DNA from: Marsupella aquatica
Lineage: Eukaryota; Plantae; Marchantiophyta
Direction: 5' to 3'
Assembly (NCBI GenBank): GCA_973895155.1
Contig: OZ316896.1
Location: 7,178,780 to 7,242,779, forward strand
Length of the DNA: 64,000 nt
The notes under the pieces are model-generated. The model was not told the origin of the DNA. It ran no database searches and saw only the letters and a program-made list of their open reading frames with translations. Shown here one piece after another: positions 12,679 through 32,046 of the stretch. The translations under genes and the position numbers were made by a program. Numbering within the stretch: position 1 is the stretch's first letter; every line of letters starts with the position of its first letter.

Positions 12679-15600
12679 TATGATGCCTAGACAGGAATCA
12701 CTCGGCCGGTTAAGTGGGTAAAGCAGGAAGGCACCCTAGGAACACCTTAGTATAGTGACAAAACAAGGAAAATATAAACAATTAGGGGCAACCATGGAAC
12801 CCGGGCAGAGGCCGGAGGTAAGGCTGAGGGTGAAAACCCGATTAGGGTTAGGGCGCGTTAAGCGTCGGTGGCTAGGAAGGATCAACGGGAAGAAGGACGG
12901 GCAGAGGAGAGGGGTAAGGAGCGCTTTCAGGAGATGGTGGCTCATTTGCGAGCACGAACTAGGCAGACGACTACGGGAGGCCAACTACTGTCAGCTGCTT
13001 AGGCAAGCACTCGGGGAGAGAGTAGATACCGACGATCAACCTAAGGAGGGTATGAGCAACGTCAATCAAGCGGCACATTTCTGGGGATGCCTGTTCGAAC
13101 GGGCAACTGAGTACATCAAGACTTACGAGGACGAGGAGTCAGAAAGGGCAGCTCGAGAACGGCAGGAGCTCGCTCGATTGTGGGAGCTGCAGAAGACGGC
13201 TTTCTTAGGAGGCGAACTCATCAAGGACGAGTTCCTGTGGACGCCTACTTCCAATCAACTCGACGATCTTCTGTTTTGCAAAGACAACGTCGTCGGCATC
13301 CGAGAGGCCATCAAGAACTGCAACGACATACACTGGGAATTAAAGGGTAGCACGGAAAGGTGGACCCAGGCAACGGTGCTAGGAGAAACCTCCACGGCAG
13401 CAGAGATGAAGAGGAAGGGAGCCGTCAACGATGAAGCCACCCCGGCAAAAAGAACGAGGTCGGCGGCACCAAAGAAGCCAGCCGAGCAGCAGAGCAGGAG
13501 GCAGGGAGAAGCCGAAGAGGAGGAGGTCGATCCCATCAAGGCCATTCCAACCAGGGATGACACCTGGAAGGGCTGGGCGGCAACCCTACCGGTGGAGGTG
13601 CAACTACATTTTGCACGGGAGGAGGATGCATGCTTTACGGCCATGCAGACCAAGAAGTACCAAGGCTTCATGGCCGGATCCGGCTTGGAGGCCTTTGTAA
13701 GATTACCATGGCTGAAGCCGGAGGTACCGGAGTCAGACCTATTAGAATTCGTGGGGTCATGGGAACCCGAGACCAATTGCACGAGGATATATGGGAAGGA
13801 TTTCTATCTTACTCCCAAGGTAATTGCCGAAGTGTTTGGCTTGCCGATAGGCAATAAGACCAAAGTTGATACCAGGAAGACCTTGCCTGACAAGGAGTTC
13901 CGGTCGTTCCCCGGGCCATCAACGAAGAATGGCTTCTTCCGGAACACCTGCACCAACCCGCACATAGGAGAGATGATCGACTTCTTGCGGGTGACCATGC
14001 ATTGTAACTTGCCGAGGGCAGAGATCGGCAAGGCACAGGTCTATCTGGCAGAAAGGCCAGACCCAAGCCGGGACTACAACGGGTACCTCCTCAACCAATT
14101 GAAGAAGATCTTAAAGGAGGAGCAGCAGGTAATCGGCATGGGGAGCGTGTCGCGGCTTGGCTATCACATGCCGCTGTTGTGCCGGTATGCCAGAGGTCAG
14201 ACTTTTGCCCCGGTACTTCCCCTGCAGGTAAGGGCACCCGAGGAAGCTCCAACACCGAGGCCGTTGGCTGAGAAGCCTCAACCACCTGTTAGTCCTACGA
14301 TCGAGCAGGTGTTTAGGCCCAGGAAGGAAGACTTGCCGATGCAGCAACCAGGCATGCAGAGTCTGCTGAAACTACTGGAGAAAGAAAAGAAATCGGCATC
14401 GGCAACAACAACAACAACGGCAACGGCAACAATGCAGGACACTACTACAGAGGTAGGCCTACACCGGCTCACAAGAGAAAACCCCTTTGCTGGAGACAAG
14501 GAGAGAATCAGGCCGGAATCCAAGCCAGGTGTTCGAATGTACGTGGGAACCTCAAGCTCCGAATCTGAGGCAGAATTGCCTGAAGCTCCTACCGACGAAG
14601 AGGAGAGGGAGAAGCCGGACGTCCAAGAGGTAGAGGAGGCAGTGGAGGCCTGCAGCCATGATAATTCCGGCTATGGGTCGGACCATCACGTTCCAGGAGT
14701 AAGGACCTGTGGCCGGTTTGTCCCCACACTTCCAAGGGTAGTGCGAGGGGACCCCAACCAGCAGAGTAGCCCTGAGTCTCCCCCACCAGATGTTGCTCCC
14801 CCGAGCTTTGACGGCATAAAACAGACGGTGCAGGAATTTCAGGAGCGAATCAAGCAGGAGGAAGAGGCCGCCCTGGCTAAGGAAAAGGATTTACCAGGAG
14901 GAGATTGGCCGGAGGACATCAGGCGGCTAGCCGAAAAAGGAAGCAAACCTCTAGCCACGATTGAAGAGATCCGCAGGACGGCTTGGGAGCAGAGGCCACG
15001 ATGGGCGATGCCGATCACTTCTACTTACTCCACCTACGCTAAGAATAGAGCCATGGAGTATGGTGAGATGTGTGGGGAACTTGCGCTCGGCATCTTTGGA
15101 GAGGAGTTGGAGGTAGGACCCTTTTTCCATAGGGAGCAGTTGGAGAAGCACCAATTAGAAGAAGCGGTGGCTTTAGAGAGAAGCAAGAAGGACGAGGTCA
15201 TTCGGCGGCTTAGGAGGATGGGAGCCAAGATTGAAGATCTAAGGGCGGCCAAGAAAGCCCAAGATGAACTGCGGATTAAACGACATGAGCTGAACATCAT
15301 GCAGGGGCAGTTGGACGCCGCGCAGGCTGATAATCAGAATATCAAGGATAAACTGACTCAGACGCAGGAAGAGTTGGCCGACACGATCAAAGAGAGGGAA
15401 AAGTGGAAGCAAGAGCTGAAGAATACAGAGGAGGCCCACATAACAGCCAACAGCCGGGCCATGGCGGAGACCCAAAGAAAGGAATGGGCGTTGAAAGGGG
15501 AGCTCGAGAAAATCCGCGGAGCCCTTGAGCAGAAGGAGGTCGAGTTAGGGAAATCCTATCAAGGGATTATGGCGCTGCAGCAGGAGCTTGCGTCCCTGAC

Positions 15601-17320
15601 GGCCAGCTTCAAGGCCGACCTAAGGGAGAAGGACGAGATGCTCGAACAGACTTACGCCAAGATGAACCAGATGGAGTCTGTCATCATTGCAGAGCTCGAC
15701 AAGGAGCTAAGAGCAACCCAGGAGGAGAGGGCTACCTTGAAGAAGGAATTGGAGGAAGCCCACAGGGAGCAGGAGGAGGCCAAAAACGAGCTGGAGGGGG
15801 CACGTAAGGACCTGGATGAAACCCAAGAGGAGTTGGAGGAAATCACGAGGAAGATGGAGAACCTACAGCGGCGGGCCGACAACCAAACAGAGCGGCTGAA
15901 GAAACAAGCCGCAGTATTTAAATGCTTAGCTGCAGCAGGTCCATCTCCCGTTGGGACAAACCAGTTACCAGGGGTGGTAATTGCCGAAGGACAAGCCGCG
16001 CCACCTGCACCAGTGCCGGAAGTAAGTGGGAAGGGGAAGGGACCAGCTGCCGAGCCACCAACGAAGAAGAAGCGGAAACCTTCAGGGTCAAGGAGTAATA
16101 TGACTTCACAGGCCGTGGTGATCAAGGAGGTAGACCCAGCACCGACCCCAGACAGGGTCACGGCTAAGGATCCAACTACCCTAGGGGAAGGGGAGGCCAA
16201 AGCCGTGGGAGTGGCTGAGGCCGAAGCCGTGGGTATTGCCGAGGCCGGTGTCGAGGCTGAAGCCGAAGGTGGACCCAGTCAGGCCGATGGAGAGTTGACT
16301 CGGTCAAGGGCAGGTAATCTGTCAGTAGGCGGGCCAACGGCAGTGGCTGAGGAGGAAGTGTTGGGGGCGTCCATTGAGGATCCACCACCGGTGTCGTGAC
16401 GGTGCAAGGGCGCCGTTCCTTTTAGGGAGGGCGGACGTGGAGGGAGGAGGCATGAGTGGGCAGGGCGGGCACGGATCTCCACGTTTAGGATTAGGATCAG
16501 AACCAGGAACGGCCCTGACACTTAGCTTAGTGGGATTGCGGTCCCACTGGTAGGAGCAACACTTGTGCTCCTGCCTTGCTGTACATAGGTAGATTCGGGC
16601 AAGTAGATTACTGTTAAGTAGATTAGGCTTACGATGCAAAGAATGGCGGATCCACTACCAGGATAAGTACCTGGGTAGCGGGGAGCTCAGGGCCTCTTCT
16701 TTAGCAAGTTCTTAGTTTGCACCAGCCGGGCTGGGATCAAGTAGTACGAGAAGCTCTCGGTTAGTCATACAGTGACCCTTGTGTATATTCATGTTTCCTC
16801 ATGCCTAAGAGCTGAATAGAGTTGGCCTCACGGCTTAGTTCGCAGAACTTATGTATGAGATGTACTGTTTGTATGGCAAGTGCATGGTATGACTCAGTCA
16901 GAATGAGTCATTTTGCTATTTGTGTGTCGCATTAACTTGTGTGAAGAGTGCCCACATCAACAGAAGGAAGGAAAGTAAGCAGGGGAGTGAGAGTTGGATG
17001 TGTCGAGCTGAGAGAGGTCTTAGCGGCTTAACCAAGCCTATTGGGGATCATTCCGGCGGCGGAATCCAAACATACCTAACAAGACGGAGGGGAAGACAGG
17101 GGAAGACAGGGGAAGGCCTATATTAGGCCGGCTACGTATCTCATGACCCGATGAAGGATCTGTCCAGTATATGTGTGTAAAATGTTAATAGTAGTAGTAG
17201 AAGGTTAGCAGCGTCCCATGCCGCTAAGCCGCGAAAACAGCCTCGCCAAGCACGAAACCTGCGGGAATCGGCTTGAGCTGGGGGGTTTCTTGGGTTTAGG
17301 GAGCCATGGGACGCACCACA
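12679..17320 (+). repeat. Family B 5' LTR (4642 bp) containing a long ORF
   Basis: Starts TATGATGCC; the copies at 28206 and 39216 start TGTGATGCC and each directly follows a PPT. Ends GACGCACCACA, followed by a PBS. Confidence 0.9.
13052..16399 (+). CDS. Intact LTR-encoded protein of unknown function (~1115 aa from MSNVNQ; frame open from 12755): N-terminal domain, central retroelement accessory-type domain, Pro/Glu linker, long coiled coil, basic NLS-like motif
   Basis: Uninterrupted frame. The central motif LPW..EFVGSW...IYGKDFYLTPKVIAEVFGLP resembles plant retrotransposon extra-ORF domains (by eye). Also a heptad-rich E/K/L segment and KKKRKP. The start was chosen by alignment to the family C start MSHTILSSSAIQFW. 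Confidence 0.85.
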   Translation: MSNVNQAAHFWGCLFERATEYIKTYEDEESERAARERQELARLWELQKTAFLGGELIKDEFLWTPTSNQLDDLLFCKDNVVGIREAIKNCNDIHWELKGSTERWTQATVLGETSTAAEMKRKGAVNDEATPAKRTRSAAPKKPAEQQSRRQGEAEEEEVDPIKAIPTRDDTWKGWAATLPVEVQLHFAREEDACFTAMQTKKYQGFMAGSGLEAFVRLPWLKPEVPESDLLEFVGSWEPETNCTRIYGKDFYLTPKVIAEVFGLPIGNKTKVDTRKTLPDKEFRSFPGPSTKNGFFRNTCTNPHIGEMIDFLRVTMHCNLPRAEIGKAQVYLAERPDPSRDYNGYLLNQLKKILKEEQQVIGMGSVSRLGYHMPLLCRYARGQTFAPVLPLQVRAPEEAPTPRPLAEKPQPPVSPTIEQVFRPRKEDLPMQQPGMQSLLKLLEKEKKSASATTTTTATATMQDTTTEVGLHRLTRENPFAGDKERIRPESKPGVRMYVGTSSSESEAELPEAPTDEEEREKPDVQEVEEAVEACSHDNSGYGSDHHVPGVRTCGRFVPTLPRVVRGDPNQQSSPESPPPDVAPPSFDGIKQTVQEFQERIKQEEEAALAKEKDLPGGDWPEDIRRLAEKGSKPLATIEEIRRTAWEQRPRWAMPITSTYSTYAKNRAMEYGEMCGELALGIFGEELEVGPFFHREQLEKHQLEEAVALERSKKDEVIRRLRRMGAKIEDLRAAKKAQDELRIKRHELNIMQGQLDAAQADNQNIKDKLTQTQEELADTIKEREKWKQELKNTEEAHITANSRAMAETQRKEWALKGELEKIRGALEQKEVELGKSYQGIMALQQELASLTASFKADLREKDEMLEQTYAKMNQMESVIIAELDKELRATQEERATLKKELEEAHREQEEAKNELEGARKDLDETQEELEEITRKMENLQRRADNQTERLKKQAAVFKCLAAAGPSPVGTNQLPGVVIAEGQAAPPAPVPEVSGKGKGPAAEPPTKKKRKPSGSRSNMTSQAVVIKEVDPAPTPDRVTAKDPTTLGEGEAKAVGVAEAEAVGIAEAGVEAEAEGGPSQADGELTRSRAGNLSVGGPTAVAEEEVLGASIEDPPPVS

Positions 17321-17324
17321 TTTT

Positions 17325-17342
17325 TGGCGCTAGATGGAGGGG
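17325..17342 (+). promoter_or_regulatory. Primer-binding site, tRNA-Asn type
   Basis: TGGCGCTAGATGGAGGGG lies 4 nt after the LTR CA and resembles the Tat-type PBS TGGCGCTAGAAGGAGG. Confidence 0.8.
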
Positions 17343-17389
17343 GCATTTCTTAAGCCGTGAGATATGAAGTTAGAACGGAAGCGTAGGTA

Positions 17390-17833
17390 ATGACTGACCT
17401 TACGCCGAGGGAAGAAAGAGTGATTCAACGGGAGAGAGCTCGACTGCAGCAGCTCGCCGGGTGGCATGATACACAGCGACTGAGAGGGGCAGAAAGAGCT
17501 GGTAGCTCCGAAACTGGAAGTGGCATCGAAGAAGACATACCAGAAGAAGAGTCGGTAAGGAGAAGTGAGTCTCCAACCGACATGGGGGAACCAGAGGCAC
17601 GGCCAGACGAGAGGCCAGGGACCAGATTGAGCCAGCGGTCGCGCATACATTACAAGGCATTTCATGGGAGAGGAGATGAGGATCCGGACGAATGGGTGGA
17701 TGATTTCGAGGGAACCGCTGCAGCAAATGGAGAATCGGCCATCAAGATGCAGATTCTTCCCGGCCTGTTCAAGGGTGAGGCTAGGCCTTGGTACAGAGCC
17801 TTAGATGTGGAAGATCAAGCCATCTGGGTTTAG
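17390..17833 (+). pseudogene. gag: Truncated family B gag N-terminus
   Basis: YKAFHGRGDEDPDEWVDDF...GEARPW aligns with A gag YKTFHGKPKEDPDAWLEDF...GEARPW. Confidence 0.9.
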
Positions 17834-19561
17834 CGGCTTAACCAAGCCTATTGGGGATCATTCCGGCGGCGGAATCCAAACATACCTAACAAGACGGAGG
17901 GGAAGACAGGGGAAGACAAGGGAAGGCCTATATTAGGCCGGCTACGTATCTCATGACCCGATGAAGGATCTGTCCAGTATATGTGTGTAAAATGTTAATA
18001 GTAGTAGTAGAAGGTTAGCAGCGTCCCATGCCGCTAAGCCACGGAAACGGCCTCGCCAAACACGAAACCTGCGGGAATCGGCTTGAGCTGGGGGGTTTCT
18101 TGGGTTTAGGGAGCCATGGGACGCACCACAGACGCCATCGACCAGCTCAACTTGGAGGTGGCGCGGCTCCAGACTGAAGCCGATGAAGCTGCAAACGAGG
18201 CGGAGGAAGCATTACGGGACAACAAGGCTTTGCAGGACCACGTCACCCTGCTCGTCCTCCAGCGGGGAAAACCTGGGCCCACCTCTGATCAAGGTGGCTC
18301 GAGGTCTCGCCCCGACAAGGGGACCAGCCCTGGTCCAACCACTGCACACACGTAAGGGGTAGTTAGCAAAGGGTAGAAGCAGGCGCCGCGCGAGGCGGTT
18401 AAGTCAGCGGCATCTTTTAGTTAGGCGTAACGACAAAATGACTGTCATTAGGCGCCGATTAGCGGCAGTAGGAAGAATTAGGGCCGGTCAGTTAGGATCA
18501 GCCAACGTAGGATTGAGTCCATCAACGGACTAGAGTTTGTTAGTAGGCTTGGCCGCTGCCATTCCGGTTGGCACACTCGTCGTCAACGGTCAACCGGTCA
18601 GTGCAGCGCGACCAGTAGTCAACAGTTAGTTAGTCAGTAGGTAGTACCCCGAAAGGTAGTATCCTCCGGTTCTCTTCCGCTATGGTAGTATTTAGGCTTC
18701 CCCTTCCGCGATGGGAAGGGGGAGAAGGCTTAGTTATCTCAGCAGAAGAAAGGCGAGGCACGGGGAGTCTCGGCCTGAGTAGGGTCAGAGCGTACCAAGG
18801 AGTGAGAGCCAGAGTCGAGCTTGCTGGGCAAGTGCAAGGCAGGGCCTCGTAGAGACTGGGCATCGACTGCCGTTGGGCCTGCTGACCCCCTTTGAAGTCG
18901 AGTCAACCATGTAAACTGATGCTTCGCTGAGTAAATGTAGTCTTTTCCCCCTAATGTTTCTGAGAGTAACTGGTGTTGTGTGTATGCTTTGTCCGGGCAA
19001 AGGCGCCATTTTAAGGGACGTACCGGGTGCGGACTAATGGTAGGGATTGCCACTCATTGCATGTCACAAGTTCTTGTCACGTCGATGGCTTGAAAAGCCC
19101 CAAGTCGGGAGTTAGTCCGCGTCACTAACTGAGGGAAAATTCCAGCGGTGGAAAATAAATATACCTATGTCAAGTACGAATTATGCGAGTGTTATACCAG
19201 TAAGTATAGCGGCTTAGCCCGACTTAGGGCTATTGAAGGTCACTACACACCTCCTTGCCCAAACCCTCACCCCTACTGGTGGTCGAGGTCGCACCACGAC
19301 ACTAACCCGGATTTAAGGCCCAGGGTAGGGGTGCGACACCACTGCCTCTCCATCGTCGACTTCAGGAGTTGTATGGACGAGTCAACTTTCAAGATACAAA
19401 TCTCCCAGAAGCGGGTTTTTGGAGACTAGTGTATTGACGGCCATACTCTGCTTCCTATGCTCGGGCCCCAAAATCTCGGCTTCGGCTGAGGTCGTGGTGG
19501 CCTCGCTTCCTGAGGGGTTGATGGTAGGCATAATGGCTTCAGCTCCCTGCTTAGCTGGAGT

Positions 19562-22060
19562 TGTCGCACCCATAACTCGGGCCTTAAATCCAAGTTAGTT
19601 CCCTAGGGCGACCTCGACCACCAGTAGGGGTGAGGGTTCGGGCAAGGAGGTGTGTAGCAGGCCCGATTAGTCCTAAGTCGGGCTAAGTCAATATACTTAA
19701 CGGTATAATACTTACGCAGCTCGTACTAGTCATAGGTATATTTGTTTTCCACCGCTGGAATATTCCCACAATTAGTGACTCGGACTAACTCCCGGCTTGG
19801 GGCTTTCAAGCCATCGATGCGACAGAACTTTGTGACATGCAATGGGTGGCAATCCCTACCATTAGTTCGCACCCAGTACGTCCCTTGAAATGGCGCCTTT
19901 TCCCGGACAAAGCATACACACAACACCAGTTACTCGTGGAAAAATCAGAGGGAAAAGACTATATTTACTCAGCGAAGAATCAGTTTACATAGTTGACTCG
20001 ACTTCTAAGGAGGTCAGCACGCCTAAGGCAGTCGATGCCCAATCTCTACGAGGCCCCGCCCCGCACTTGCCCAACAAGCTCGACTCTGGCTCTCACTCCT
20101 TAGTGCACTCTGACCCTGCTCAGGCCAGCACTCCCCGTGCCTCGCCTTTTCTTGCACTGAGATAACTAAGCCTTCTCCTCGTCCTCCAATGGAAGGGGAA
20201 GCCTAAATACTACGGTTGCAGAAAGGAACCAAAAGATACTACCTCCCGGGGTAATGCCTACTGTACTGAGTAACTACCTTTTGACTAACCGGCTGTACTA
20301 CCTCTGACCGATTGACCGTTAGTGGCGGCGGCACTGACCGCGGTGGCAATAGCCAAGTCTACTGACCAAAATCTAGTTTGTTGATGGACTCTATCCTATG
20401 TCAACCGATCCTAACTGATTCTGTCCTAATGCTTCCTATTGTGCCGCTAATCGATGCCTAATGACAACCATTCTGTCGTTAAGCCTAATCAAAAAGATGT
20501 TGTTGACTCAACTACCCCGCGCGGTGCTTGCTCACATCCTCTACTAACCACCCCTTACGTGTGTGCTGTGGTCGGGCCAGGGTTTGTCCCCTTTTCGGGA
20601 CAAGACCTCGAGCCGCCTTGATCAGAGGCGGGCCCAGGTCTTGCCCGCTGGAGGACGAGCAGAGTAATGCGGTCCTGCAAGGCCTTGTTGTCCCATACCG
20701 CCTCTTTTGCCTTGTTTGCAGCTTCATCGGCCTTGCTTAGGAGCCTTGCTACCTCCAGGTTGAGCTGGCCGATGGAGTCACAATGGGTCTGGTCCTGCGC
20801 CAGCAATTTATCTCGCTCGGCGGAGAGACTAGCCACATGCTGAGCTGATTGCAGGAGTTGGTTGTTGAGGTCGGACAGGCTGGTAACCCGAGCCGAGGAT
20901 TCTGAGCGCAACTGAAGCACGGTGTTGTCCCGCTTCTTGAGATCTGCTTGCGCCGTGCTCAACTCTTGGCTTAGTCCATCCCGTTGTTCAACAGTGTGGA
21001 CTAACTCCTCACGACGGGTAGTGGCCTCTTCTTCAAGGTGTTCCACTAGCATTTGGAGGCGCCCGATCTCGTTCCCCTTTGCCATGAGTTCTTCCTCCAA
21101 GGGGCTTACGATCCGCGGTTGGTGCTCTAACATGAAGAAGGCTGGTTGGAAGTACGCCATGACTTGTTGTCCGATGTATGTCGCCAGCTCCCCTGACATA
21201 GTCTGGCTAAACTTCTAGACCAGGTCGTAGGCCATGGTCCCTGGGGCTACTTGGTAGTCCTCCATCCTCTCGGGCACCGGTGGTTCCTCGGGCGGGGGGG
21301 GCGAGCTCCTCCGTAGTCTGCAATGGGGAGGGGAAGGTTTCTTTAGGTGGTGGAGGGATTGGGGGTGGTTGTACCGGGGGTAGCGAAGGCTTGACGGAAG
21401 GGGGTGGCGGAATTTCAACAGGAGGAGGTGACGGAGTATTAGTCGGGGCTCGGGGTTTGCCTGAGGCGTGGTAGTTTGCTCGCTCGAGGTAGCCTCCTCG
21501 GGAGCGGGGGTGGCGCTAGTCAGGGCTGAGGTGGCCATGTTCTTTCCCCTTGCCTCCCGCCGCGCTTTGTACTAGGCAAGGATGTTGGCGATGTGACTTC
21601 CTACGTAGGTCCTTCCCCCGATAGCCATACCTCCTTGAGCTTGCTTAAGCTGCCCCGAGAACCTACGGTAAAAGAATTGGGCCTAGTTCCGCCGTTTGTA
21701 CTATTCCACCTATACGATTGTATAGAGGGAGATCTTGGATTGTGGCTCAATCATGTGTAGGGTAGTCCGTATGAAGTTAAGCCGCTCCATATAGACCAAG
21801 TTGGTGCAGGACCCTTGCTTGTACCCGTTGTCTGTCTTACCCTCTGGTTTGAAGTGCCGAGGTGTATACTCCTTATCCCAAATTTGGAGTTCAACCAAAA
21901 TCGGCCTGGTTGGCAGACAAAAGATCTGTGCCAACCGATGCTCCGTGAGTGATAAGGTATGTCTTGAAACCTTGGTGGTAGATGTGTTAGTGTTGAAGTT
22001 GGATATGAACTCACAAACCTAGCTCCCTTGGTCCGGCTGCATTAGGTCTCCATAGCAAGT
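19562..22060 (-). mobile_element. Family D LTR-like unit (minus copy), 5' part lost at the LINE junction
   Basis: Inverted homologue of 12178-12678 and 18136-19338; terminus TGTCGCACC at 19562. Confidence 0.75.
20555..22060 (-). pseudogene. Family D LTR-encoded ORF, degraded
   Basis: LSLTEHRLAQIFCLP...DNGY...ERLNFIRTTLHMIEP...IGGRTYVGSHI aligns with family C MSLTEERLKMIFGLP...DNGF...ERLEFQRYALHMMEP...IGGKAYFASHI. A Pro-rich linker and coiled coil follow. Confidence 0.8.
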
Positions 22061-24011
22061 GAGCAAACTACTAGATGCTAGTGGCATGCCTTTGCTCCTT
22101 GGGGACACCATTCAGTTTACAGAGAGGGAGGTGAAGGTGCATCTTTCCCACATGCAACATGGGAAAGCTAAAGATCTGTTGGGCCTGAACTTGGAGCTTC
22201 TTTTGTGGGGAGGACCCTCTTTACTAACAAACTTGGTGCATGAGCTGAATCAAGCAATGGCTTTAGGTTTACCTAAAGCTTGGATGACCAGAAGAGTGGT
22301 GCCTATCTTCAAGGCAGGCAACAAGGACGATGTGCACAACTACAAAACCATCATGGTAGGCAATACTTTTGCTAAAGTTTTGGGAGGACTACTTGAAGCC
22401 AGATTAAGCTCTTGGTTGGAGAGTGAGATGAAAAGGGCACCTTCACAAGCAGGTTTTAGGAGAGAATTCAGCACTATGGATCACATTCTCTGCTTGAGGG
22501 TGTTGTGTGAAAAGGCCAAATCTCCACATAAACCATTATTTTGCTTGTTTGTGGACTTCTCCAAGGCCTTTGACAAAGTTTCCCGATCCAAGCTTTGGGA
22601 TAGGATGGTGGAGTTGGAAGTGCCTGAAGAGCTCAGGTTGGCTGTTTCTAAATTGTACCAAGAAGTGCGCATCAAACTTTCAAAGGAAACCTCTGAAGAA
22701 ATCTGGAGCACTCTTTGGGTGATCCAAGGTTGTCCTCTCTCACCAACTCTCTTTGGCATCTTCATTGATCAGCTACACAACATTTTGGAGGAGCATGGTG
22801 GAGTTGGCACTCAATTGGGTAGGTTTGTCCTCCAACTTCTTATATTTGCAGATGATGTGGTCCTACTTGCTCATGCTCAAGAAGCTTTGCAAAGGCATCT
22901 CAATGCCTTGGAGGAGTTTTGTCAAGCAACAGGGATGGTAGTCAACCTCAAGAAGACCAAGTGTTTGGGCATTGGCACACGACAAAATCCAGAGCTCTAC
23001 TTCCAAGGGAATCTGGTGGAATTTGTGAGGACCTACAAATACCTTGGGGTGGAGTTCTCTCAAAACTTGAGTTGGGCCTCATGTGTAAAATCTAGGGCTG
23101 CCAATGGGTACAGAGCTTTTTATGCATTCATGAACAAATGCAAAAGAGCTGGTCTACACACTTGGAGGTTAAGGAAACATCTATTTGGAGCTTTGGTGAA
23201 ACCAGTCATTCTTTATGGAGCACCAATTTGGGGAGCAGGTGTGTCTAAATCTGGGTGGCAACAGATTGAGGGGCTGCAAAAGCTATTTATTGAGATGGAG
23301 CTTGGGATCAAGTCACAAACCCCATATGCACTTACACTTGCAGAGGCAGGCTTGTTTCCTTTGGAGGTGGAGGCACTCTTCCACACACTCAAATACATCA
23401 TGCGTGTAAGAGAGTTGGAGGAAAACAGATTTCCTTTTCATGCCTTGCGCTCATCTTCAGCTACAGGGTGGTATGCAGATGTGTGCAGGTGGGCCCATGC
23501 TTGGGATTTTCCTGAACATGAATGGCCAACACACCCAACCAAGCTAGGAGCAAAACTTGAGCAAAAGGCTTTGCACAAACTTTGGCATGAACCTAGCCCA
23601 CGGCAGCAATACTACATGAGAGATGTGAACCCCATGAAGAAATATCGAGAACAAGAATACTTATCTAGCACTATCTCAGTACAACTTAGACAACTTATTG
23701 CTCAGTATAGACTAAGCTCACACCACCTTGAAGTAGAAGAAGGGAGATGGAAGGATATTGACAGGAAAAAGAGGGTTTGTCAACTATGTGATAGCTCTAG
23801 TATAGAGAATGAATATCATGTATTCATTGCTTGCAAGTTTTATGAGGGGGTTAGGATGGCATCTCAAATCTTGGTGAAAGATTTGTATGCATTGTTTGGT
23901 CTGCCCCCTCAGCAACTTGGAAGATATATCTTTGCGGTGGATAGGGAAAGGAGAATAGGTTTGGAAAATCTTTCAGGGCTCTCTAGGTCCATAGTTTCTT
24001 TGAGGACATAG
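22059..24011 (+). pseudogene. LINE ORF2 fragment: reverse transcriptase and C-terminal Cys/His motif
   Basis: QAGFR, FVDFSKAFD, QGCPLSP, FADD, YKYLG, and C-terminal EEGRW...RVCQLC...ENEYHVFIAC. The endonuclease domain is missing through truncation. Confidence 0.92.
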
Positions 24012-24142
24012 TTGTCCTCTTCTGAGCAATCTCTTTTGGTTGCTCTTTTCTTTGATTGCATTGTACTTTACTTTTTGTGGCAGCTCCTTTGACTTTCATG
24101 GTCCCGGAGCTTATAATACATTACCATTACCATTACCATTAC
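22060..24142 (+). mobile_element. 5'-truncated non-LTR retrotransposon (LINE, probably RTE-X clade) with (CATTAC)n tail
   Basis: RT ORF, ~110-bp 3' UTR, and four CATTAC units at 24119-24142. The 5' junction position is approximate. Confidence 0.9.
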
Positions 24143-24275: not shown

Positions 24276-27200
24276 TCAAGGAACAATTCGGGAGAAATGT
24301 ATCCTCGGATTATTCAGAATCCGTCAGTACCTCCTAGGCCGAATGTGCAAAGATTTGCGGCATGTTATAATTGTGGTCAACCTGGCCATTTTGCTAGAGA
24401 ATGCCCGAATGCATGCAAACGAGGTGATGGACAACCAGCTCAGCTATGTATGGGATGCCAACAGGAGGGTCACATGCTAGGACAATGTCCTACTTGGTTG
24501 GCAGGACTTGCCGCAAATCATAAGCTCTTACCGGTCAAGGTCTTGCCTCCGGGTACTACCCCAGGAGGAGTTCAAATCAACCACAGAGGATTTGGATCAT
24601 AATTGCTACCGGGTCTCTACTCGATCCACCAGAAGGAAGGAAAGGTGGGATGGGCTGGCCAAAAATAAAGGGAAGGTTAAAGAAGAAAAGATTGACTCTT
24701 TGTCAACATCAACAGAAGGAGAAGGAAGGGCGCCGACAACACAGGTAAGCCATGAGCCCACCAGTGAGCCCAATCCTTCACAGGACAGCGACTTCAATCA
24801 AGACCACCCTAAGTTGTTTTACCCCTCTATTACGGCTAGTGTTAAGGAACAACTGCGAGAATTGGAAACCCTGGAGAATACCGAAGCCATAGCCAAGGAT
24901 GTGAAACGAGCAAAAGTGTTGTTTGCTTTGGAGGATCCAAGGGCTATGGAAACTAGCGTGAAAAAACAGGCCAAAGCCAATACAAAGACACCGGCAGAAG
25001 AGAAGCCGATAGTCCCCAATGACTTGGCTAAAGATGTACTAGAATCTAGAGTCTCGGCAACAGTAGGTCAACTATTGAAAAATAGCCCGTACTTCCGGAA
25101 GCAGTTAAGGAAAGCCATTCTTGGCAAGCCGAGATTACCCAAGGTAGCAACCAGATCCGACGTGCTGATGATAGAAGAAGATCAAGGAGCCCCAGCATTA
25201 CCATTAATGATTCAAGGAGAAATATTACTAAGGGTACCCATCGATGGAGGATCAGGGGTATGTATTATGATTGATTCAACAGCAAAAGGATGGGGACTAA
25301 CGCCGGAGATGACTGGAAGAGTGTTGAACATGGCCAATGGGTATCAGGTCATTCCCACGGGAGTGTTAACCGGCATCAAGACTGAGATAGGAGGGATCTT
25401 CTTTAGCATTAACTATGTAGTAATGAAGCCGGTAAACCCTACGTCATTTCGGCTATTGATTGGCAGGCCATGGCTGTATCTAGCCAAGGTAATAGAAGAT
25501 TCGGGGAAGAAGGAGTTCACTTTTGGAACCCCCGCTATCACGGTATCTTGGGACACCAAGGATGACCGTAGGAGAAGCATCAGGGAGGTAGACGGGTATG
25601 ACAGTGGACTGGAGTCAGTAGATGAGGTACGTTGGCTAGAATGCCTCACTAACCTGACCGAAGAAAGTATCTTTGGACCAGAAGTATCCCCCAGCGGACT
25701 ATGGCAAGAACCTATGGAGAGTGGCTTGGAGGAATGTGAAGACAAAACCGAGGACTGCTTTGCCATAGAGTCCACCTTTTTAGCTTCAATTCCGGAGGAA
25801 GCACAAAAAGTGGACCAATTGGATGAAACGGCTAAGTGGGGAGCAGCAACCGAGCCAGTGGATTTTCCTCAAGCGTTGTGGCAGAGCCGGCAGGATCCAC
25901 AATGCCGTCTATCATCGGCAATAAATTAAATACCAAGGAATCGGCATACAAGCCGATTACGAGGGTAGAACGAATTGAGGCCCTATTAGAAGCCGGAAGA
26001 GCACAGCGACCTGACCCTCAGGAGGTAGGAATGGATGAGATACACAGAAACAAGCCAGAGCCAAGGCCGGAAGGGAAGCCGACCACCAATTCAAAACCGA
26101 ATAGTCCGGCAAGGGGACACTCTGCGGATAACCAGGGAGAAACCGACTCGGCTAGTACGGCCGAGATTCCAGTTTATGGAGGTATGAGACTGGAGAGGCT
26201 GGAAGCCGAATTGGACCCAAACTTGAAGAAGCAGATTAATATGATCCAAGCACGGCAATACCGAAAGCTCGACTTAGGAGAAGGAAGGGAACTGAACTTA
26301 GGACAGGACCTAGCACCTGAGCTTGAGAAAGAAATCAGTGAATTACTGTTTGAATTTCAGGATGTGTTCGCATGGAGTCACCAAGACTTGAAGGGAGTAG
26401 ACCCAAAATTAGGAGAACATCAAATTGATCTCATGTTAGGGGCCAATCATTTCGACAACCAATTCGAAGGATGAACCCTAAGTATTCCATGGTCAAAACT
26501 GAAATTGACAAACTAGTGGAAGCCGGATTCATCACTCCAGTCCTACATTCAGACTGGGTGTCTCCAATTGTGATAGTTCCCAAGAAAGCTGGACCCGATG
26601 GTAAACCCAAGATCCGGGTTTGTCAGGATTACAAGAAGTTGAATGAGGCTACGTTAAAGGACCATTTTCCTTTACCCTTTACTGATATGGTACTAGACAT
26701 GGTAGCCGATCATGAATTATACTCATTCATGGATGGGTACTCTGGAGGACCAAATCAAGACGGCCTTCATCATGGAATGGGGGATCTATGTCTTCAATCG
26801 TATGCCGTTTGGACTCTGTAACGCACTAGCTATGTTCCAATGATTATTGGTGAACATTTTCCATGACTACTTGAGAAAGTTCACGGAAATCTTCATCGAT
26901 GACTTTGCAGTATTTGGGAAAGCATCGAAACATGCTAAATACCTAAGGAAGACCTTCATGAGATGCAGAGAGGTAGGTCTCAAGTTACACCCAGATAAAT
27001 GTTTCTTTGGAGTAATAGAGGGTGTACTGCTAGGGCACAAAGTATCGAAGAAGGGCATTGAGATTGACAAGGGTAAGCTAGCAGTATGGCTTGATATCAT
27101 GCAACCTAAAAACATAAAGGATGTGAGATCCTTCTTGGGGTGCATTGGGTATTATCACCGGTTCATCAAGGATTTTTCCAAGCTAGCTTTACCATTAACC

Positions 27201-28205
27201 AACATGCTCAAGGCAAGCGCAGACTTTGAACCCAGAGCAGAAAGAGTAATAGCTGTGGTGGAATTAAAGCAAAAGTTAGTGGAGGCCCCAGTCATGATAG
27301 CACCAGACTGGAACAAGGATTTTCATGTCTTCATAGATGTCTCAGGCTTCTGTATCGGCTCAGTACCAAGTCAGCTAGATGAGAAAGGAAGGGACCATCC
27401 CATATACTTTACAAGCTGCCAGCTTGCCGATGCCGAACGGAACTACTCCACCACAGAAAGAGAAGCTTTAGGAGTCATTTATTCATGTAAAAAGTTTAGG
27501 CATTATTTTCTAGGGTCTGAATGATATAATTAATCGTTTAAATGAGCAGTATTTAGTTAGACATACACCTACTACTCCTTACCACCCAAAGGCAAATGGG
27601 TTGACAGAACAAGCCAATGGGATTATAGGAAAAATATTAAACAAGACTGTAGCTCAGAACAAACTCGATTGGGATGATAAATTGTTTGCTGCTATTTTTG
27701 CTTACAATTTAGCCTATAAATCCACTACCGGTCATACACTCTTTTTCTTAACCTTTGGGCAGGAAGCTCTGGTACCCATGAAACTTGAGATACCTACATT
27801 TCAAATTACAATTGAGGAAAGAGTCTCTGAGGAGGAAAGCCTAAAGGAGCGAGAATATAGATTAGAAGCTTTAGAAGAAGCAAAAATGATTTCAGCCGAG
27901 AGAGTAGAATATAGACAGAATACCATGAAGCAGCAGTATGATAAAAGATTGAAACCAGTTAGTATCCACACAGGAGACTTGTATTACTTTATGATAGTAG
28001 GTATAGTAGGTTCCCAGGTAAACTTTACACTCGTTGGTTAGGACCCTTCAGGGTAAACATGAAGTTCTCCAATGGCTCCGTGCAATTGGCCAACATTACT
28101 GGAGAAATATACCCAGTTCGCATTCATTACGACCGTCTCAAGAAATACTATATGGACAAAGATGAAGTTGTTCGCGAGGACGCTTCACAATTAAGTGGGG
28201 AGCTA
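24276..28205 (+). pseudogene. gag-pol: Family B internal region B2: degraded gag-pol
   Basis: CYNCGQPGHFAREC, IDGGSG, FIDD, RNase H and integrase C-terminus, with frameshifts. Deletions near 24585, 26745 and 27517; the last removes the RNase H end and integrase N-terminus. Confidence 0.92.
28193..28205 (+). promoter_or_regulatory. Polypurine tract of B2
   Basis: AAGTGGGGAGCTA directly before TGTGATGCC. Confidence 0.85.
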
Positions 28206-29390
28206 TGTGATGCCTAGCCAGGAATCATTAGGCCAGTTAAAATAGTAAAATCAGGAGTGTACCCTAGGAAACACCTAAGTAGTATAGTAACAAAAACAGG
28301 GAAATATAAACAATTAAGGGTGACTATGGAACCCGAACCGAGGCCGAAAGTAAGGACGTCGGGGGAGGGAACACGATTAGGGCTAGGGCGCGCTAAGTAC
28401 CGGCGGCTATGGGTAACCAATGGGAAGGAAGACCAGCCAAGGGGGGGTAAGGACCGATCGCAAGGAATGGCGGCTCATTTGCAAGCACGAGCTGTCACGT
28501 CGTAGGCTTCGGCCTTAACTCAGACTTCAGCTTAGACGGGCACATCCCTCGTAAATCTGAGGGTTTGGGCAGGAAGGGAAGCACGTAATGCACCTTATTC
28601 TCGTAAACTAGCGCTAAGTGCGCATACTGCTAAATACAGACACCTCCTAGGTATGGTTTGTGTTCCGCCGCCGGAACGTACCTTAGTCGATAGCAAGATC
28701 GACCCCGGCTTAAGGGCTTCTAAGCCTTCGTGCTGTCCGCCTTCGATCCGGATTCGATGATACAGGTCCTCAACCCGTGCTCGCAACCACTTACCCGCAG
28801 GCTGCACCCTGTGCACGTCTCGGGTAGTGCGTTCGGCCCGGCGCTGCCACCCATATACGAGAAACCCACACACATATGCGCACACATGCATACAATCTCG
28901 ATTTACACGAAGGAAAAATGATGGGAAAGGATTTTACTACAAAGGGAACATATGCGTACACTTAGTTGACACGACAGCCCTGGAATGCACAGGTTCAAGG
29001 CCAAGAGTGCACACTACAACGGAGCCCGGCTCCGCACTCGCCCAGCGAGCTTAGTCCTACCCCCTCCCCTTGGTACTCTGTCATTCCCAGAGGTCGGGAC
29101 TCCCCGCATGTCCCGCGGATGTCCGACTCTGAAACTAAAACCCCCCCTTGCCTCTACCGAGGGGTGCACTAAATACTAAGAGCCAAGGAACGGGGCGTCC
29201 TCCTGCCGAAGATCCGCTGACCAAGGTCCTAACTAAGCTGACAGTCAGGCCGGAAAACGGCTGTGTCTTATTAGAAGATCCTAATCTACGCAGGCTGGAC
29301 AGCAGGGCAGCGCTGCTGTACCTAAGGCAGGTGCCTGTCCCAAGAGCCTGACTAAGCCAATCCTAATCCTAATCTATTCCTACTCCGCCG

Positions 29391-32046
29391 CTAATACCTG
29401 GCACGCTTGCCAGAGCCGCCCGAATGGGAACGGCCATCCCGCTGCCTTCGAAGCCTGTCATTGTCCGCTTTGAGGAGCTGGACCTGGTCTAGCAGAGATT
29501 CGTTCTCTCGCCTCGCCGCGTCCGTCTCCTCTGCTGCCTCCTGACATGCCTCCTCCAGCTGCTGGGCATCGCTCGTCAGTTTACTCGCCAGCTGGTCCTG
29601 CTTCTCGGCCTCGGTTTGGAGCCGCGCCATCTCGGCCTGCAGCGTGGCTATCTCCGTTGCGTCCCGCTGGGCTCGCTCCTCGGCCTCCTCCAGGTCTTTC
29701 TGCCAGGTGACAGCTTGTTTCTTCAAACTGTCAATCTGGTTCCGGAGTCGTGTAATCTCGGCCTCGTTCCCAGCTTTGGCCTGTTCGGCTAGGGCGGTAA
29801 GAGCGTACGCCTTTGCTAACAACTCATCGGCGGCTGCAACCTTGGGTCGTAGTTGCAGAAGCTCAGCCTCTTGAGCCGCCACTTCGTTCTTTAGGTACAC
29901 GGACTCCACCCGGTACCGCTCTATCCTCTGAAGGGCCTCCGACTGGGCCCGACCTGCCTTTACGGCGGCAACCAACTCCTGATTGAAGAAACAGGCTACC
30001 TTCCGGGCCATGAACTCCCCGGTATCCCGGGCAATTTGATGAGAGAAATCTCCTAGAAGCCCGTTCAGAAACGTACCCTGTACGAAGAGTTCTGGGTGGT
30101 CCAAGTTGTGCCTGTCCGGATTTGGGCACGGGCAGACATCAACACGCGCAGGGGCCGGGGCAGTGACGTCCAGCCCTGGGGACATAACGTTGGAAGGGGC
30201 TGGAGTGTCCTCCTGCAGCGATGTCCGGTTCTCCGGAATTGCCACCGGCGGGTCCTTGGGAGACCCGGGTTCGGGTAAGACCTCTGCCGTACCAACTTCT
30301 GTACTTAGCCTGGCTAGTTGGGTCGCATCAACGGTTGCGATGACCGACCCCTCCGGCGCCTCCTCGGTTACGATTACAGCTATTTGTGGAGGTGGGGTGG
30401 GTGAAGCTGGCGTGTCCACTGGACTTCGGGCCTCGGGTTGGGGCCGTCTCTCCAATGCCGGAAAAACCCACCTAGCTGGGACCAGCTTTGTAACGTTGAT
30501 GCGGGGAAGGGTTCGTCGATCAAACCGGGCGTACCACTCAAGAATGATTTCGATGTGGCTAGCGAAATACGCTTTCCCGCCAATGTACAGCGTCTTCCTT
30601 CGCCGCTCCATCTCTTCATGGAATTTCTTAGCGAAGTACGACGCCCATTTCCTAGGTCGATAGTTCTCGACCTGGATGACCTGGGCGGCGGAGATCTCCC
30701 CCCGGGGTTCCATCATGTGGAGAGCGTACCTCTGGAACTCCAGCCGCTCAGCTATCTCGGGCATGAGGCAGGTCCTCATCACGAACCCGTTGTCCACTGA
30801 TCCCTCTGAGGGAAAACTTGAAGATTGGTACTTGGCCCCCTTGCCCCCGGGAGCCCGTGATTCGACTCGATGGTCACCTTCGGGTAACCCGAAGATCATC
30901 TTGAGTCGTTCTTCTGTGAGGGACATATTCCTTCCCCGCAGCCGAGTCTGTTGACGTACGTCGTCATAATTCTTGATGAATTCTGTCATGTCCTCCCCGT
31001 AGTACCTGCAAGTGTTCCAGGGGAGAGAGGCGAGGTGCTCAAATCCCTGAGTCTTCAGGTACACCGCATGCTTGGGATGGAGGATGTTGCTGTGAACGTT
31101 TTCCCCCATGCGATGCATCGTTACCTTGGCTACGGCTACCGTGGCCAACGGTAACCCGGATGCACTGGCGGATTCCTTCCTCTTCTTTCCCCGTGACTGA
31201 CTCGGGGAAGGTGATACTTCCCCATCCTCCCGATCGGGCCTGGGGAGTGCCACCGCGGTTGGTAACGGGCCCGGGGCGGCCACGGTCACCATGTTGTCTG
31301 CTGGGGCCGCTCCTGGGGTCAGAGCAGGGGGTGGGGACGATATAGTGTCGGCCCCCCGAGCGCTCACTAACCTTATTGGCCTCCCAAGTGTGAGGAAGGA
31401 TCTGTGGGGTAGCCTCGTCGTCATCGCTAAGATCCACAGCGTTGATGACGGAGCGTACCTGTGCTGGCTGGGTGATAGGTGGTGGGGTTTGGCTAGGCCG
31501 CGGCTGAGGCTGAAGCTGAAGCTGAGGTTGCATGGGCACGGGTACGGGTACGGGTACGGGTCCGACTGAGTTGGTCATGTTGGTTGATGGCCGAGTTCCC
31601 ATGAAGCTCTATAGGTGCTGGTAGAAGTTCTCCGAAGCGAGTGCGGACGCCCTTGTCGAACAGTTGGTACTGGACTCGCCGTTAATGACAGCCCGAACCT
31701 GGGCAGGGATGTGGTCGAAGTGATGTCGCTGCAGGTCAATTGTACCCGGGATATTGAAGACCTCGTCCGGAAGCCGAAGCAATGCTTCCCAGAACCCGAT
31801 ATATTTGTCTCCGTTGAAGAAGTACCCACATACCTCAGCTGGTCGGTAAAGCTCGCTCTGAGACGGGTAGTCAAAGTTAAGGACGTAGTGGTGTCGTCCT
31901 GCTAGGCGGATGGCTCTCTCGTATTCGTGTTCGATCTCGTATTGGCGCGGGTTGGCGTGTTTCAATGAATCGGCCAAGTGCCTTCCGGTAGATAGGAACT
32001 GCGTCCAGAATTGAATGGCCGAGCTGGAGAGGATCGTGTGCGACAT
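29391..32046 (-). pseudogene. Family C LTR-encoded ORF (~885 codons ancestrally; one CAG>TAG stop near 31609 and one frameshift near 31400)
   Basis: The 145-aa, 187-aa and 677-aa ORF pieces join into one frame when compared with copy C2. Homologous to the B ORF. Confidence 0.85.

Follow-up and report, generated by a model that had tools for sequence, protein, structure and literature searches.

The window analysed here, a stretch of 64,000 nt from Marsupella aquatica (Marchantiophyta; GCA_973895155.1, OZ316896.1, positions 7,178,780 to 7,242,779, forward strand), contains two families of Ty3/gypsy retrotransposon LTRs of about 4 kb, named B and C, each carrying a whole gene of about 880-1115 codons that belongs to one protein family. 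The interior of an LTR is an unusual location for a gene. A third family, D, is likely to be another gene-bearing LTR family of this kind. The families are nested in this window, their copies having inserted into LTRs of one another, and B1 is the sole intact one among the 8 copies or fragments present. The features of the B family are as follows.

12679..17320, + strand: B1 LTR (4642 bp), the 5' LTR of a B element (12679-18130) with an internal deletion
12773..12778, + strand: TATAAA of the B LTR, putative promoter element 274 nt ahead of the ATG
13052..16399, + strand: B1 ORF, intact, 1115 codons plus stop, entirely within the LTR
13052..13381, + strand: B1 N-domain (~110 aa), recognised by an HMM of the C-type N-domain
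13583..14200, + strand: B1 core domain (206 aa), matched to C and D by BLASTP and hhalign
15125..15919, + strand: B1 coiled-coil-like region (about aa 692-956), from composition only
16064..16078, + strand: basic cluster KKKRK in the tail of B1, putative nuclear-localisation-signal-like motif, from composition
17325..17337, + strand: B1 PBS-like site TGGCGCTAGATGG (TGG...), 4 nt past the LTR end at 17320, with the gag N-terminus next
17830..18130, + strand: final 301 bp of the B1 element's 3' LTR, 98.3% identical to 17020-17320, stopping at the second target duplication
28206..28492, + strand: B2 LTR, left part, directly after the PPT AAGTGGGGAG and overlapping the end of the integrase ORF
32517..34851, + strand: B2 LTR, right part, cut by a LINE at 34848
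39216..44952, + strand: B3 LTR, a 3' LTR preceded by the PPT and interrupted by a LINE at 43502-44526
62192..64000, - strand: B4, incomplete B LTR that extends beyond the window, ORF tail at 63097-63999

The B1 LTR begins with TATGATGCC and terminates with CACCACA, and the other B copies begin with TGTGATGCC. The B1 element is flanked by a target duplication, GACGC, at 12674-12678 and 18131-18135, and the gag N-terminus that follows its PBS (17387-17833) matches the gag of element A (E 9e-23). In both B copies with an attached internal region, at 28206 and 39216, a PPT is found immediately upstream, which places the B ORF inside the LTR and downstream of the PPT and bears out the preliminary description of this DNA, where it had been called an LTR ORF. 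The B unit is therefore delimited as an LTR by TG..CA ends, a 5-bp target duplication, a PPT before the 3' copy and a PBS after the 5' copy; no PBS was found after B4. TATAAA occurs once in the B LTR and is kept in all three aligned copies. The B2 ORF (32614-34850) is decayed by stops and one frameshift, and the B3 ORF (39593-43015) is a single frame with 3 internal stops. The C family is represented by two copies.

28493..32516, - strand: C1 solo LTR (4024 bp), inserted in the B2 LTR, with TG..CA ends and a target duplication
32148..32154, - strand: TATAAAA of the C LTR, putative promoter element some 100 nt ahead of the ATG, with a CT-rich leader after it
31609..32046, - strand: C1 ORF, N-domain piece (145 codons)
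29391..31574, - strand: C1 ORF, main piece (727 codons), with linker, core, Pro-rich linker, coiled coil and KRAR end
30519-31142, - strand: C1 core
52444..56442, - strand: C2 LTR, with the ORF frame at 53339-55975

Read on its own strand, the C1 LTR has the ends TGTGACGCC...GACGTGACA, and its target duplication, CGAGC, lies at 28488-28492 and 32517-32521. As C1 forms a solo LTR flanked by a target duplication, a location of the C ORF inside the LTR is implied, and the earlier assignment of this ORF to an LTR is supported by the TG..CA ends and the CGAGC duplication. One frameshift separates the two pieces of the C1 ORF. The C2 ORF frame comprises 879 codons counting the terminal stop and contains 5 internal stops and no frameshift; the flanks of the C2 LTR agree at 3 of 5 bases only. 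The C LTR contains a single TATAAA match, which is present in both C copies. No internal region, PBS or PPT of the C family was found within the window. The D family is present as two remnants.

20555..22085, - strand: Db, D ORF remnant with core, Pro-rich part and coiled coil, truncated on its 5' side by a LINE
21710-22018, - strand: Db core
20555-21214, - strand: Db coiled-coil part
12179..12678, + strand: Da, coiled-coil region of D, interrupted by the B1 element and resuming at 18131-18355

Both D copies are thus truncated or split, and no D LTR ends were identified in the window. Self-blastn (E<=1e-20, at least 250 bp) gave no B-C, B-D or C-D pair, in agreement with the earlier statement that the families have no obvious similarity at the DNA level, and the peptides quoted in support of the protein family were all found where they had been placed.

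The core of about 200 aa is recognisable by BLASTP, well beyond chance, in all three pairs, with E-values of 1e-19 for B-C (28% over 185 aa), 4e-17 for D-C and 5e-11 for D-B. Profile-profile alignment, which had been suggested as a check, is significant for the core, as hhalign gives 98.7% (E 3e-16, 184 columns) for the B-group against the C-group, 94.6% (6.5e-8) for B against D and 99.0% (2.4e-18) for C against D. Pairwise comparison of the B and C N-domains gives no BLASTP alignment, a Smith-Waterman score that 317 of 2000 shuffles attain and, with the window copies alone, an hhalign P of 0.016 at a probability of 2.8%. An HMM built from C and four outside homologues matches B1 with 27.1 bits (residues 1-106) and B3 with 30.2 bits, end to end, whereas none of 2000 shuffles attains these scores, the best reaching 7.9 bits. 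Judged from these scores, the N-domain is common to B and C and visible by profile only. A Pro-rich linker and a coiled-coil-like tail are present in B, C and D by composition only, the coiled coil being called from 30-aa bins with at least 70% EKQRLAMD and almost no Pro or Gly. Basic clusters (KKKRK, KKRK and KRAR) also occur. The preliminary description had proposed one old protein family with a shared four-part architecture. Our analysis confirms this in part: the core holds for B, C and D and the N-domain for B and C, the Pro-rich linker and the coiled coil are retained on composition, and the proposed helical motif shared by the families is not distinguishable from chance.

The dN/dS ratio between B1 and B3 is 0.25 overall, 0.087 in the core and 0.14 in the N-domain. 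For C1 and C2 it is 0.106 in the core and 0.157 in the N-domain piece, and for Da and Db it is 0.17 over 222 codons, with wrong-frame controls at 0.87 and 1.31. Purifying selection has acted on all three families, and the globular core (0.09-0.11), not the coil, is the most constrained part of the protein.

Among 1.84 billion representatives, 78 proteins are homologous at E<=1e-3, of which 35 also satisfy E<=1e-10, and those homologues that bear an organism name are all from a liverwort. One of the 78 is an intact protein of 906 aa with the full architecture, and the order of N-domain, core and coiled coil recurs in relatives from other genomes. By a crude composition criterion, coiled-coil-like tails are present in 12 of 25 retrieved proteins, cluster members as well as representatives, that extend at least 200 aa past the core. 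Pfam coiled-coil families match C and D weakly. None of the six window cores matches any Pfam model in hmmscan, even at E<=10, and this includes PF20167, PF10536, PF03078 and PF09331. However, PF20167 (Transposase_32, 'putative plant transposon protein') is matched collinearly over the core region by 6 of 77 remote homologues with E-values of 1.6e-7 to 6e-3, at 17-32 bits and hence all under the gathering cut-off of 45 bits, which points to a distant relation and not to membership. PF10536, PF09331, PF04195 and PF03078 are matched by none of the 77 homologues at E<=0.01. For the B core and the C core alike, DUF1985 and PMD clusters are among the language-model (Atlas) neighbours at 0.89-0.90, with PMD at 0.89. 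The interpretation offered earlier is therefore partly supported. A PF20167 or PMD-like class is indicated indirectly, by the sub-threshold matches, the Atlas neighbours and the fold described below, with no window core matching Pfam, whereas no link to PF03078 (ATHILA ORF-1) emerged, as 0 of 6 cores and 0 of 77 homologues match.

The AF2 model of the B1 core, calculated from 42 sequences, has a pLDDT of 90.1 and a pTM of 0.87. When compared with 48,161 chains by VIA-align, it matches 9lnk_A (VANC21 with target DNA) at Z 8.5 and an rmsd of 3.8 Å, with 199 of 206 residues aligned; only two chains reach Z>=2, the runner-up at 2.3. The match covers residues 291-526 of 9lnk_A and is given for these residues, not assigned to Pfam DUF1985 itself. 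Foldseek gave no PDB match to the core model at E<=0.001, the 42-sequence core profile retrieved no VANC21 chain (9LNK) from the PDB at E<=10, and by sequence 0 of 6 cores and 0 of 77 homologues belong to VANC/DUF1985 (PF09331). The core is predicted to share the VANC21 fold, although Z 8.5 is moderate and a shared fold does not establish a shared function. As the core is predicted to fold like VANC21, the B and C ORFs likely encode DNA-binding helper proteins, and the modelled fold speaks more for a protein that binds DNA or chromatin than for a particle scaffold.

VANC21, the anti-silencing factor of VANDAL21 (PDB 9LNK), resembles the B core in fold but has no detectable sequence similarity to it; both VANC21 and the B, C and D proteins are transposon-encoded accessory proteins. 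VANC carries DUF1985, as stated in a part of PMC5735166, and a portion of PMC10398659 describes VANC21 as binding the non-coding DNA of its own transposon and stripping methylation there. A coiled-coil region is reported for VANC21 in the section of PMC13547354 concerned with it, and coiled-coil-like tails, called from composition, are also present in B, C and D. However, the sections of PMC5735166 and PMC10398659 on VANC describe it as a dicot-specific protein carried by a Mutator-like DNA transposon and give tandem short-motif arrays as its target, whereas the present proteins are encoded in Ty3/gypsy LTRs that have no such arrays. The largest arrays in non-coding sequence of the B and C LTRs comprise 2.8 and 4.8 copies.

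Extra ORFs of Tat-lineage Ty3/gypsy elements were reportedly described by Steinbauerova et al. in 2011. In the passages of PMC4408406 on the Tat-lineage PMD-CC and Tr28-CC ORFs, a globular transposon-type domain is followed by a coiled coil, as is the case here (the coil by composition only), and the accessory gene is likewise carried by a non-chromodomain Ty3/gypsy element. However, those genes sit in the internal region, in sense upstream of gag or in antisense at the 3' end, and not inside the LTR as here. The B and C proteins further differ from them in an additional N-domain of ~110 aa, and neither the six window cores nor the 77 homologues match Pfam PMD or Tr28. For moss Tat-like elements, the corresponding part of the same study (Ustyantsev et al. 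2015) reports that no extra ORFs were found. A chromodomain or an additional RNase H was matched neither in the 2039-aa polyprotein of element A nor in the B integrase pieces, which fits the liverwort Tat elements of PMC13468544 but is not diagnostic of Tat. The rice ORF0 elements Retrosat2, RIRE3 and RIRE8, in the account given in a part of PMC3485330, are also Ty3/gypsy elements whose LTRs are unusually long (>3.2 kb) and which have an additional ORF, in sense orientation, on the 5' side of gag; their LTR ends (TGTCAC...GTGACA) are similar to those found here (TGTGAC...GTGACA). Rice ORF0, however, sits between the 5' LTR and gag whereas the B and C ORFs lie within the LTR, and the two are likened by description, not by sequence.

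AATAAA is absent from every B and C LTR in the window, so the ORF could lie in U3, as sag of MMTV does, or in R/U5. MMTV sag, one of the retroviral accessory genes that lie in the LTR or overlap it, is a protein-coding gene within the LTR, downstream of the PPT, and hence present twice per provirus. It is thus an in-LTR gene as here, but it is unrelated in sequence and function, and the B and C LTRs differ in that a TATA box precedes the ORF. The LTR ORFs are best read as divergent members of the known class of PMD/Tr28-plus-coiled-coil extra ORFs, which would have been relocated into the LTR, downstream of a conserved TATA box. They likely encode an accessory protein that is nuclear and binds DNA. 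We tentatively propose, at a probability of roughly 0.45, that the LTR genes of B and C, and likely of D, encode a nuclear coiled-coil protein with a VANC21/PMD-like core that likely binds the element's own DNA and sustains transcription or unsilencing. With its conserved TATA box ahead of the ORF, each LTR would be a transcription unit in its own right, even as a solo LTR. The basic clusters may serve as nuclear localisation signals, the coiled coil may oligomerise the protein and the core may bind DNA, so that the protein would act in trans, by anti-silencing or transcriptional activation of its family.

The long coiled-coil-like tails of B, C, D and 12 of those 25 retrieved relatives, together with the weak Pfam coiled-coil matches of C and D, could instead speak for a structural or trafficking accessory, namely an oligomeric scaffold (compare the Athila domain and env-like ORFs) for the assembly, movement or import of virus-like particles or RNA, which would not act on DNA. 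Published models of Athila-domain and VANC proteins as pentamers held by coiled coils, described in a part of PMC13547354, agree with such a role. It is nevertheless doubtful, as the strongest constraint falls on the globular core and not on the coil, the sole structural match of the core is a DNA-bound protein, and the basic clusters suggest the nucleus. A DNA-binding type of core fold would also suit a protein that tethers the pre-integration complex to chosen chromatin, replacing the chromodomain for which the intact element A polyprotein and the B integrase pieces gave no match, and the families do insert into one another's LTRs in this window. However, nesting is common among LTR retrotransposons generally and a targeting factor would not require expression from solo LTRs, and we regard this role as quite improbable.

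With 7 of the 8 copies or fragments broken, the ORFs might appear to be neutral passengers or decayed captured host genes without a role for the element. This is contradicted by the selection tests, in which each of the three independent family pairs has a dN/dS within 0.09-0.25 and wrong frames give values near 1; moreover, the architecture is kept between families without DNA similarity and intact relatives are found elsewhere, which leaves the passenger explanation scarcely credible. A further alternative is that the LTRs are mis-delimited and that the gene belongs to the internal region, as a usual 5' or 3' extra ORF. Known extra ORFs do sit between LTR and gag, or in antisense at the 3' end (in the relevant parts of PMC4408406 and PMC3485330), and none of the B elements in the window has both of its LTRs complete. 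Such an error is, however, very unlikely and is contradicted by the B and C junctions: the 4.6-kb B unit begins at one base after the PPT in both 3' copies, the B1 unit ends at one base ahead of the PBS and gag, and perfect 5-bp target duplications flank B1 and C1 at exactly those ends.

Analysis of the window by self-blastn, ORF search and Pfam reveals that it is filled with nested LTR retrotransposons of the plant Ty3/gypsy type and with LINEs. The LTR elements, comprising a separate element at the left edge (element A) and the copies of families B, C and D, are located as follows.

LTR retrotransposon copies in the window
1-12177 (-): element A, with LTRs of 2831 bp (99.97% identical) and an uninterrupted gag-pol of 2039 aa
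12179-12678 plus 18131 onward: Da, a broken D copy in orientation opposite to Db
12679-17320 (+): B1, one of four occurrences of family B
about 22085 down to 19562: Db, a broken D copy
28206-34851 (+): B2, family B, split by C1
28493-32516 (-): C1, one of two occurrences of family C
39216-44952 (+): B3, family B, split by a LINE
52444-56442 (-): C2, family C
62192-64000 (-): B4, family B

The gag-pol of element A contains capsid, CCHC, RT, RNase H and integrase, and no chromodomain match is present in it. Element A, which has neither an LTR ORF nor a relative of the B, C and D ORFs, probably inserted into a D copy very recently.

The ORFs of family B are located truly inside the LTRs. B2 and B3 start at the same first base (TGTGATGCC), immediately 3' of a purine-rich tract, AAGTGGGG(A/G)G, that lies where the integrase ORF ends. 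At the other side, B1 ends in ...CACCACA and TGGCGCTAGATGG starts four bases further on, followed by an ORF whose product matches the N-terminus of the element A gag (E 9e-23). The B1 element as a whole (12679-18130) was inserted into a D copy, of which GACGC is duplicated without mismatch on the two flanks. It has kept its 5' LTR in full, followed by 509 bp of internal region and by a remnant of the 3' LTR, its final 301 bp, with 98.3% identity to the corresponding stretch of the 5' LTR. Its make-up and the LTR identity indicate that B1 is a young insertion with an internal deletion, which accounts for its ORF (1115 codons at 13052-16399) being the sole intact one in the window. B4 was considered as a further 5' LTR and rejected as no PBS follows it, so that the 5' junction is documented by B1 only. 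C1, a solo LTR inserted in the B2 LTR, is bounded by TG..CA, and CGAGC is repeated exactly on both flanks; an internal region of a C element is absent from the window. The D copies have no definable ends here, and the label 'LTR ORF' is for this family an extrapolation from architecture. The preliminary description had placed the ORFs of all three families in LTRs, which therefore holds for B (PPT, PBS/gag, GACGC), probably holds for C (solo LTR ends and CGAGC of C1) and is extrapolated for D. In the open-access literature we found no plant ORF inside an LTR, the cases retrieved being essentially those of MMTV sag; subscription journals may contain an earlier description.

The same description had recognized by eye one old protein family with a common order of parts, an observation which is real and mostly borne out, its interpretation being partly supported. 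By sequence comparison, the core of ~200 aa is beyond doubt homologous in B, C and D: BLASTP gives E-values of 1e-19 (B-C), 4e-17 (D-C) and 5e-11 (D-B), and profile-profile alignments are significant for all three pairs with probabilities of 98.7% (B-C), 94.6% (B-D) and 99.0% (C-D). Pairwise comparison of the B and C N-domains is not significant. A C-like N-domain is present in four outside homologues (P0083, P0035, P0033 and P0024), and an HMM built from these and C1 spans the whole B N-domain with 27.1 bits for B1 and 30.2 bits for B3, the best of 2000 shuffles reaching 7.9 bits; the N-domain is thus common to B and C. In D this part has been lost to a LINE. For the Pro/Gly-rich linker and the coiled-coil-like tail, the families agree in composition and order only. 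The helical motif gave mixed shuffle results and is not counted among the shared parts; its pairwise scores were reached by 339, 95 and 377 of 2000 shuffles, and those of profiles with hand-picked anchors by 441, 14, 1, 18, 15, 790 and 39 of 2000.

Nei-Gojobori estimates of dN/dS, with stop and gap codons excluded, are listed below and are to be read with the caveat that synonymous divergence (0.3-0.5) exceeds the divergence of non-coding LTR sequence (0.12-0.20).

dN/dS between copies
B1-B3, whole ORF: 0.25
B1-B3, core: 0.087
B1-B3, N-domain: 0.14
B1-B3, acidic/Pro-rich C-terminal tail: 0.68
B1-B3, first 1800 nt, true frame: 0.20
B1-B3, first 1800 nt, wrong frames: 0.87 and 1.31
C1-C2, core: 0.106
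C1-C2, N-domain: 0.157
Da-Db, 222 codons: 0.17

The ORFs of B, C and D are real genes, which were of service to the elements while the subfamilies diverged. The synonymous excess may result from fast CpG decay at third positions or from non-coding constraint, and leaves the sign of the selection result unchanged. These values provide clean evidence of strong purifying selection on one family of Ty3/gypsy extra ORFs.

Old copies decay almost wholly by point changes. Over its 879 codons, the terminal stop counted, the C2 ORF (53339-55975, -) is interrupted by five in-frame stops and by no frameshift, and as it keeps one frame throughout, the C protein was originally encoded by a single ORF; the B3 ORF (39593-43015, +) has three in-frame stops and no frameshifts. 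Short contigs matching the B LTR are present in all four sequencing runs compared (14,237, 23,736, 509 and 60), and the B LTR is thus an abundant repeat under four organism labels. Most differences between B1 and the reads of these runs are A>G and T>C, as expected if B1 has lost CpG by deamination. The comparison yielded neither a usable selection signal nor transcript ends.

No Pfam model matches B, C or D. Among 77 outside homologues, PF20167 (Transposase_32) gives matches in six (E 1.6e-7 to 6e-3), which at 17-32 bits are below the cut-off of 45 and cover the same residues as the core-profile match, while PMD, DUF1985, Transposase_28 and ATHILA match none. Language-model neighbours of the B and C cores include DUF1985 and PMD clusters at 0.89-0.90 and are taken as leads only. 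A first AF2 model from 6 sequences was unusable (pLDDT 46.8); with an alignment of 42 sequences, the model of the B1 core (about aa 178-383) has a pLDDT of 90.1 and a pTM of 0.87. Foldseek with this model found nothing in the PDB at E<=0.001, and in BFVD its best match (E 0.037, TM 0.34) carries no name. An exhaustive structural aligner run over 48,161 chains gave one convincing match, 9lnk_A, described as 'VANC21 in complex with its target DNA' (Z 8.5, rmsd 3.8 A over 199 of 206 residues), the runner-up having a Z of 2.3. At the sequence level, the core profile finds only a chance match in the PDB (E 1). Together, the sub-threshold PF20167 matches, the embedding neighbours and the fold point to the PMD/DUF1985/transposon-protein superfamily for the core; the class guessed in the preliminary description is supported to this extent, not as PF03078 specifically. 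The B/C/D family is best regarded as a new and divergent branch within a known class, and its new and testable parts are the position inside the LTR and the fold-level link to VANC21.

According to the literature, VANC proteins carry DUF1985 (PMC5735166), their structure resembles the plant mobile domain of MAIN/MAIL1 (bioRxiv 2024.09.27.615353; PMC13547354), and VANC21 binds short motifs in the non-coding DNA of its own transposon and strips methylation there (PMC10398659). The targets of VANC are tandem repeats, whereas the non-coding parts of the B and C LTRs lack such arrays and have only micro-arrays of 2-5 copies. Closer in architecture are the extra ORFs 'PMD-CC' and 'Tr28-CC' which Ustyantsev et al. 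2015 (PMC4408406) report in Tat-lineage Ty3/gypsy elements. Their position is either 5' of gag in sense orientation or at the 3' end in antisense, and moss Tat-like elements had no extra ORFs in that study. The B/C/D proteins share this architecture and differ in the location of the gene inside the LTR, in the additional N-domain and in a divergence beyond Pfam detection. Rice Retrosat2-type elements have long LTRs and a 5' ORF0, but this ORF0 is internal (PMC3485330). Among the transposon accessory proteins considered here, VANC21 is the sole one with a described mechanism, namely DNA binding and methylation removal. The structural link turns a retrotransposon extra ORF of 'function unknown' into a testable DNA-binding hypothesis. 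To our knowledge, 15 years of cataloguing the extra ORFs of plant Ty3/gypsy elements have brought no function for them.

A single TATAAA is present in each LTR of B and C, kept between copies and located upstream of the ATG. In B it is 274 nt away from the start codon; in C the distance is about 100 nt and the box is followed by a CT-rich leader. This single conserved box suggests direct transcription of the ORF from the LTR. In that case each LTR, a solo LTR included, would be a transcription unit, and solo LTRs would be potential sources of trans-acting factors and no inert relics. Should the genomic RNA start from the same promoter, the ORF would be situated in R/U5; with a second promoter near the 3' end of the LTR it would be situated in U3, as in MMTV. 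The canonical AATAAA is absent from all B and C LTRs.

Basic clusters are present in the ORF products (KKKRK in B; KKRK and KRAR in C). Together with the DNA-binding-type core and the long coiled coil, they suggest a nuclear, oligomeric DNA-binding protein. We predict an accessory protein of this kind which acts on the LTRs of its own family and favours transcription or opposes silencing, and give this reading a probability of about 0.45. A particle or trafficking scaffold appears an unlikely role for the product, and an integration tether a still less likely one. On the reading as a DNA-binding accessory protein, a wider but doubtful proposal may be made: each LTR might be a complete gene with promoter, leader and VANC-like DNA-binding factor, so that an element would carry its counter-silencing gene twice and solo LTRs would act as trans-acting suppliers for the whole family, a retrotransposon counterpart, on present evidence in bryophytes, of VANDAL anti-silencing. 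If each LTR is a transcription unit, LTR-derived transcripts and 'hypothetical proteins' of bryophyte genomes would have to be read differently.

Relatives of the core exist elsewhere. An exhaustive HMM search of 1.84 billion representatives gave 78 proteins at E<=1e-3, of which 35 reach E<=1e-10 and two E<=1e-30. Ten of the 78 were looked up, and three are from the liverwort Calypogeia fissa, each an 'unnamed protein product'. An intact cluster member of 906 aa has, like C, the N-domain, core, Pro-rich linker, coiled coil and a KRAR end. The N-domain is present in all four fetched proteins with at least 150 aa before the core (three representatives and the 906-aa member), which are themselves among the training sequences of the N-domain model. 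Of 25 fetched representatives and cluster members with at least 200 aa after the core, 12 have a coiled-coil-like run downstream by a crude composition criterion. Word-seeded protein searches gave no match with B region 170-500 and, with the core profile A2, a single one at near lengths (P0002, a C-like fragment) and none at longer lengths. In a scan of metagenome contigs the core pattern occurred in 32 stretches, none of which was confirmed.

Several further features of the elements were observed. Telomere-like TTAGGG/TTTAGGG repeats, which resemble telobox promoter elements, are located near the 5' ends of the LTRs (B1 12782-12853, +; C1 about 32390-32460, -). Relative to the TATA box, their position is upstream in C and just downstream, in the putative leader, in B, and they are kept between B copies. 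The putative B1 leader between TATA box and start codon also contains an upstream ORF of an ATG and eight codons (about 12940-12968, +), which by eye is longer in B3. The 8-mer TTAGGATC occurs eight times in the window against 2.57 expected, a count reached in 1 of 100 shuffles in this post hoc comparison.

Sites of TTAGGATC
16491, 18492 (+)
1757, 11103, 20407, 29277, 53225, 62995 (-)

All eight sites are in LTRs, both LTRs of element A included, and in sense to the element; the six in B, C and D copies are all about 95-140 nt 3' of the ORF stop codon. It could be a shared cis element.

The D copies form a 1.2-kb inverted repeat, tail to tail (18131-19338 versus 19562-20779, 82% identity, 224-bp spacer), which could result from two insertions or from an inverted duplication. 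The region 24269-44952 (+) consists of an internal region, the B2 LTR, a LINE, an internal region from RT onward and the B3 LTR, and resembles a tandem pair of B elements with a common LTR, yet B2 and B3 are only ~85% identical. One LINE (RVT_1) is present in three copies of 98-99.6% identity (22265-24142, 34848-36491 and 43502-44526), located in D, the B2 LTR and the B3 LTR, and a 651-aa ORF at 22056-24011 is open, which points to a recently active non-LTR element younger than the LTRs it hit.
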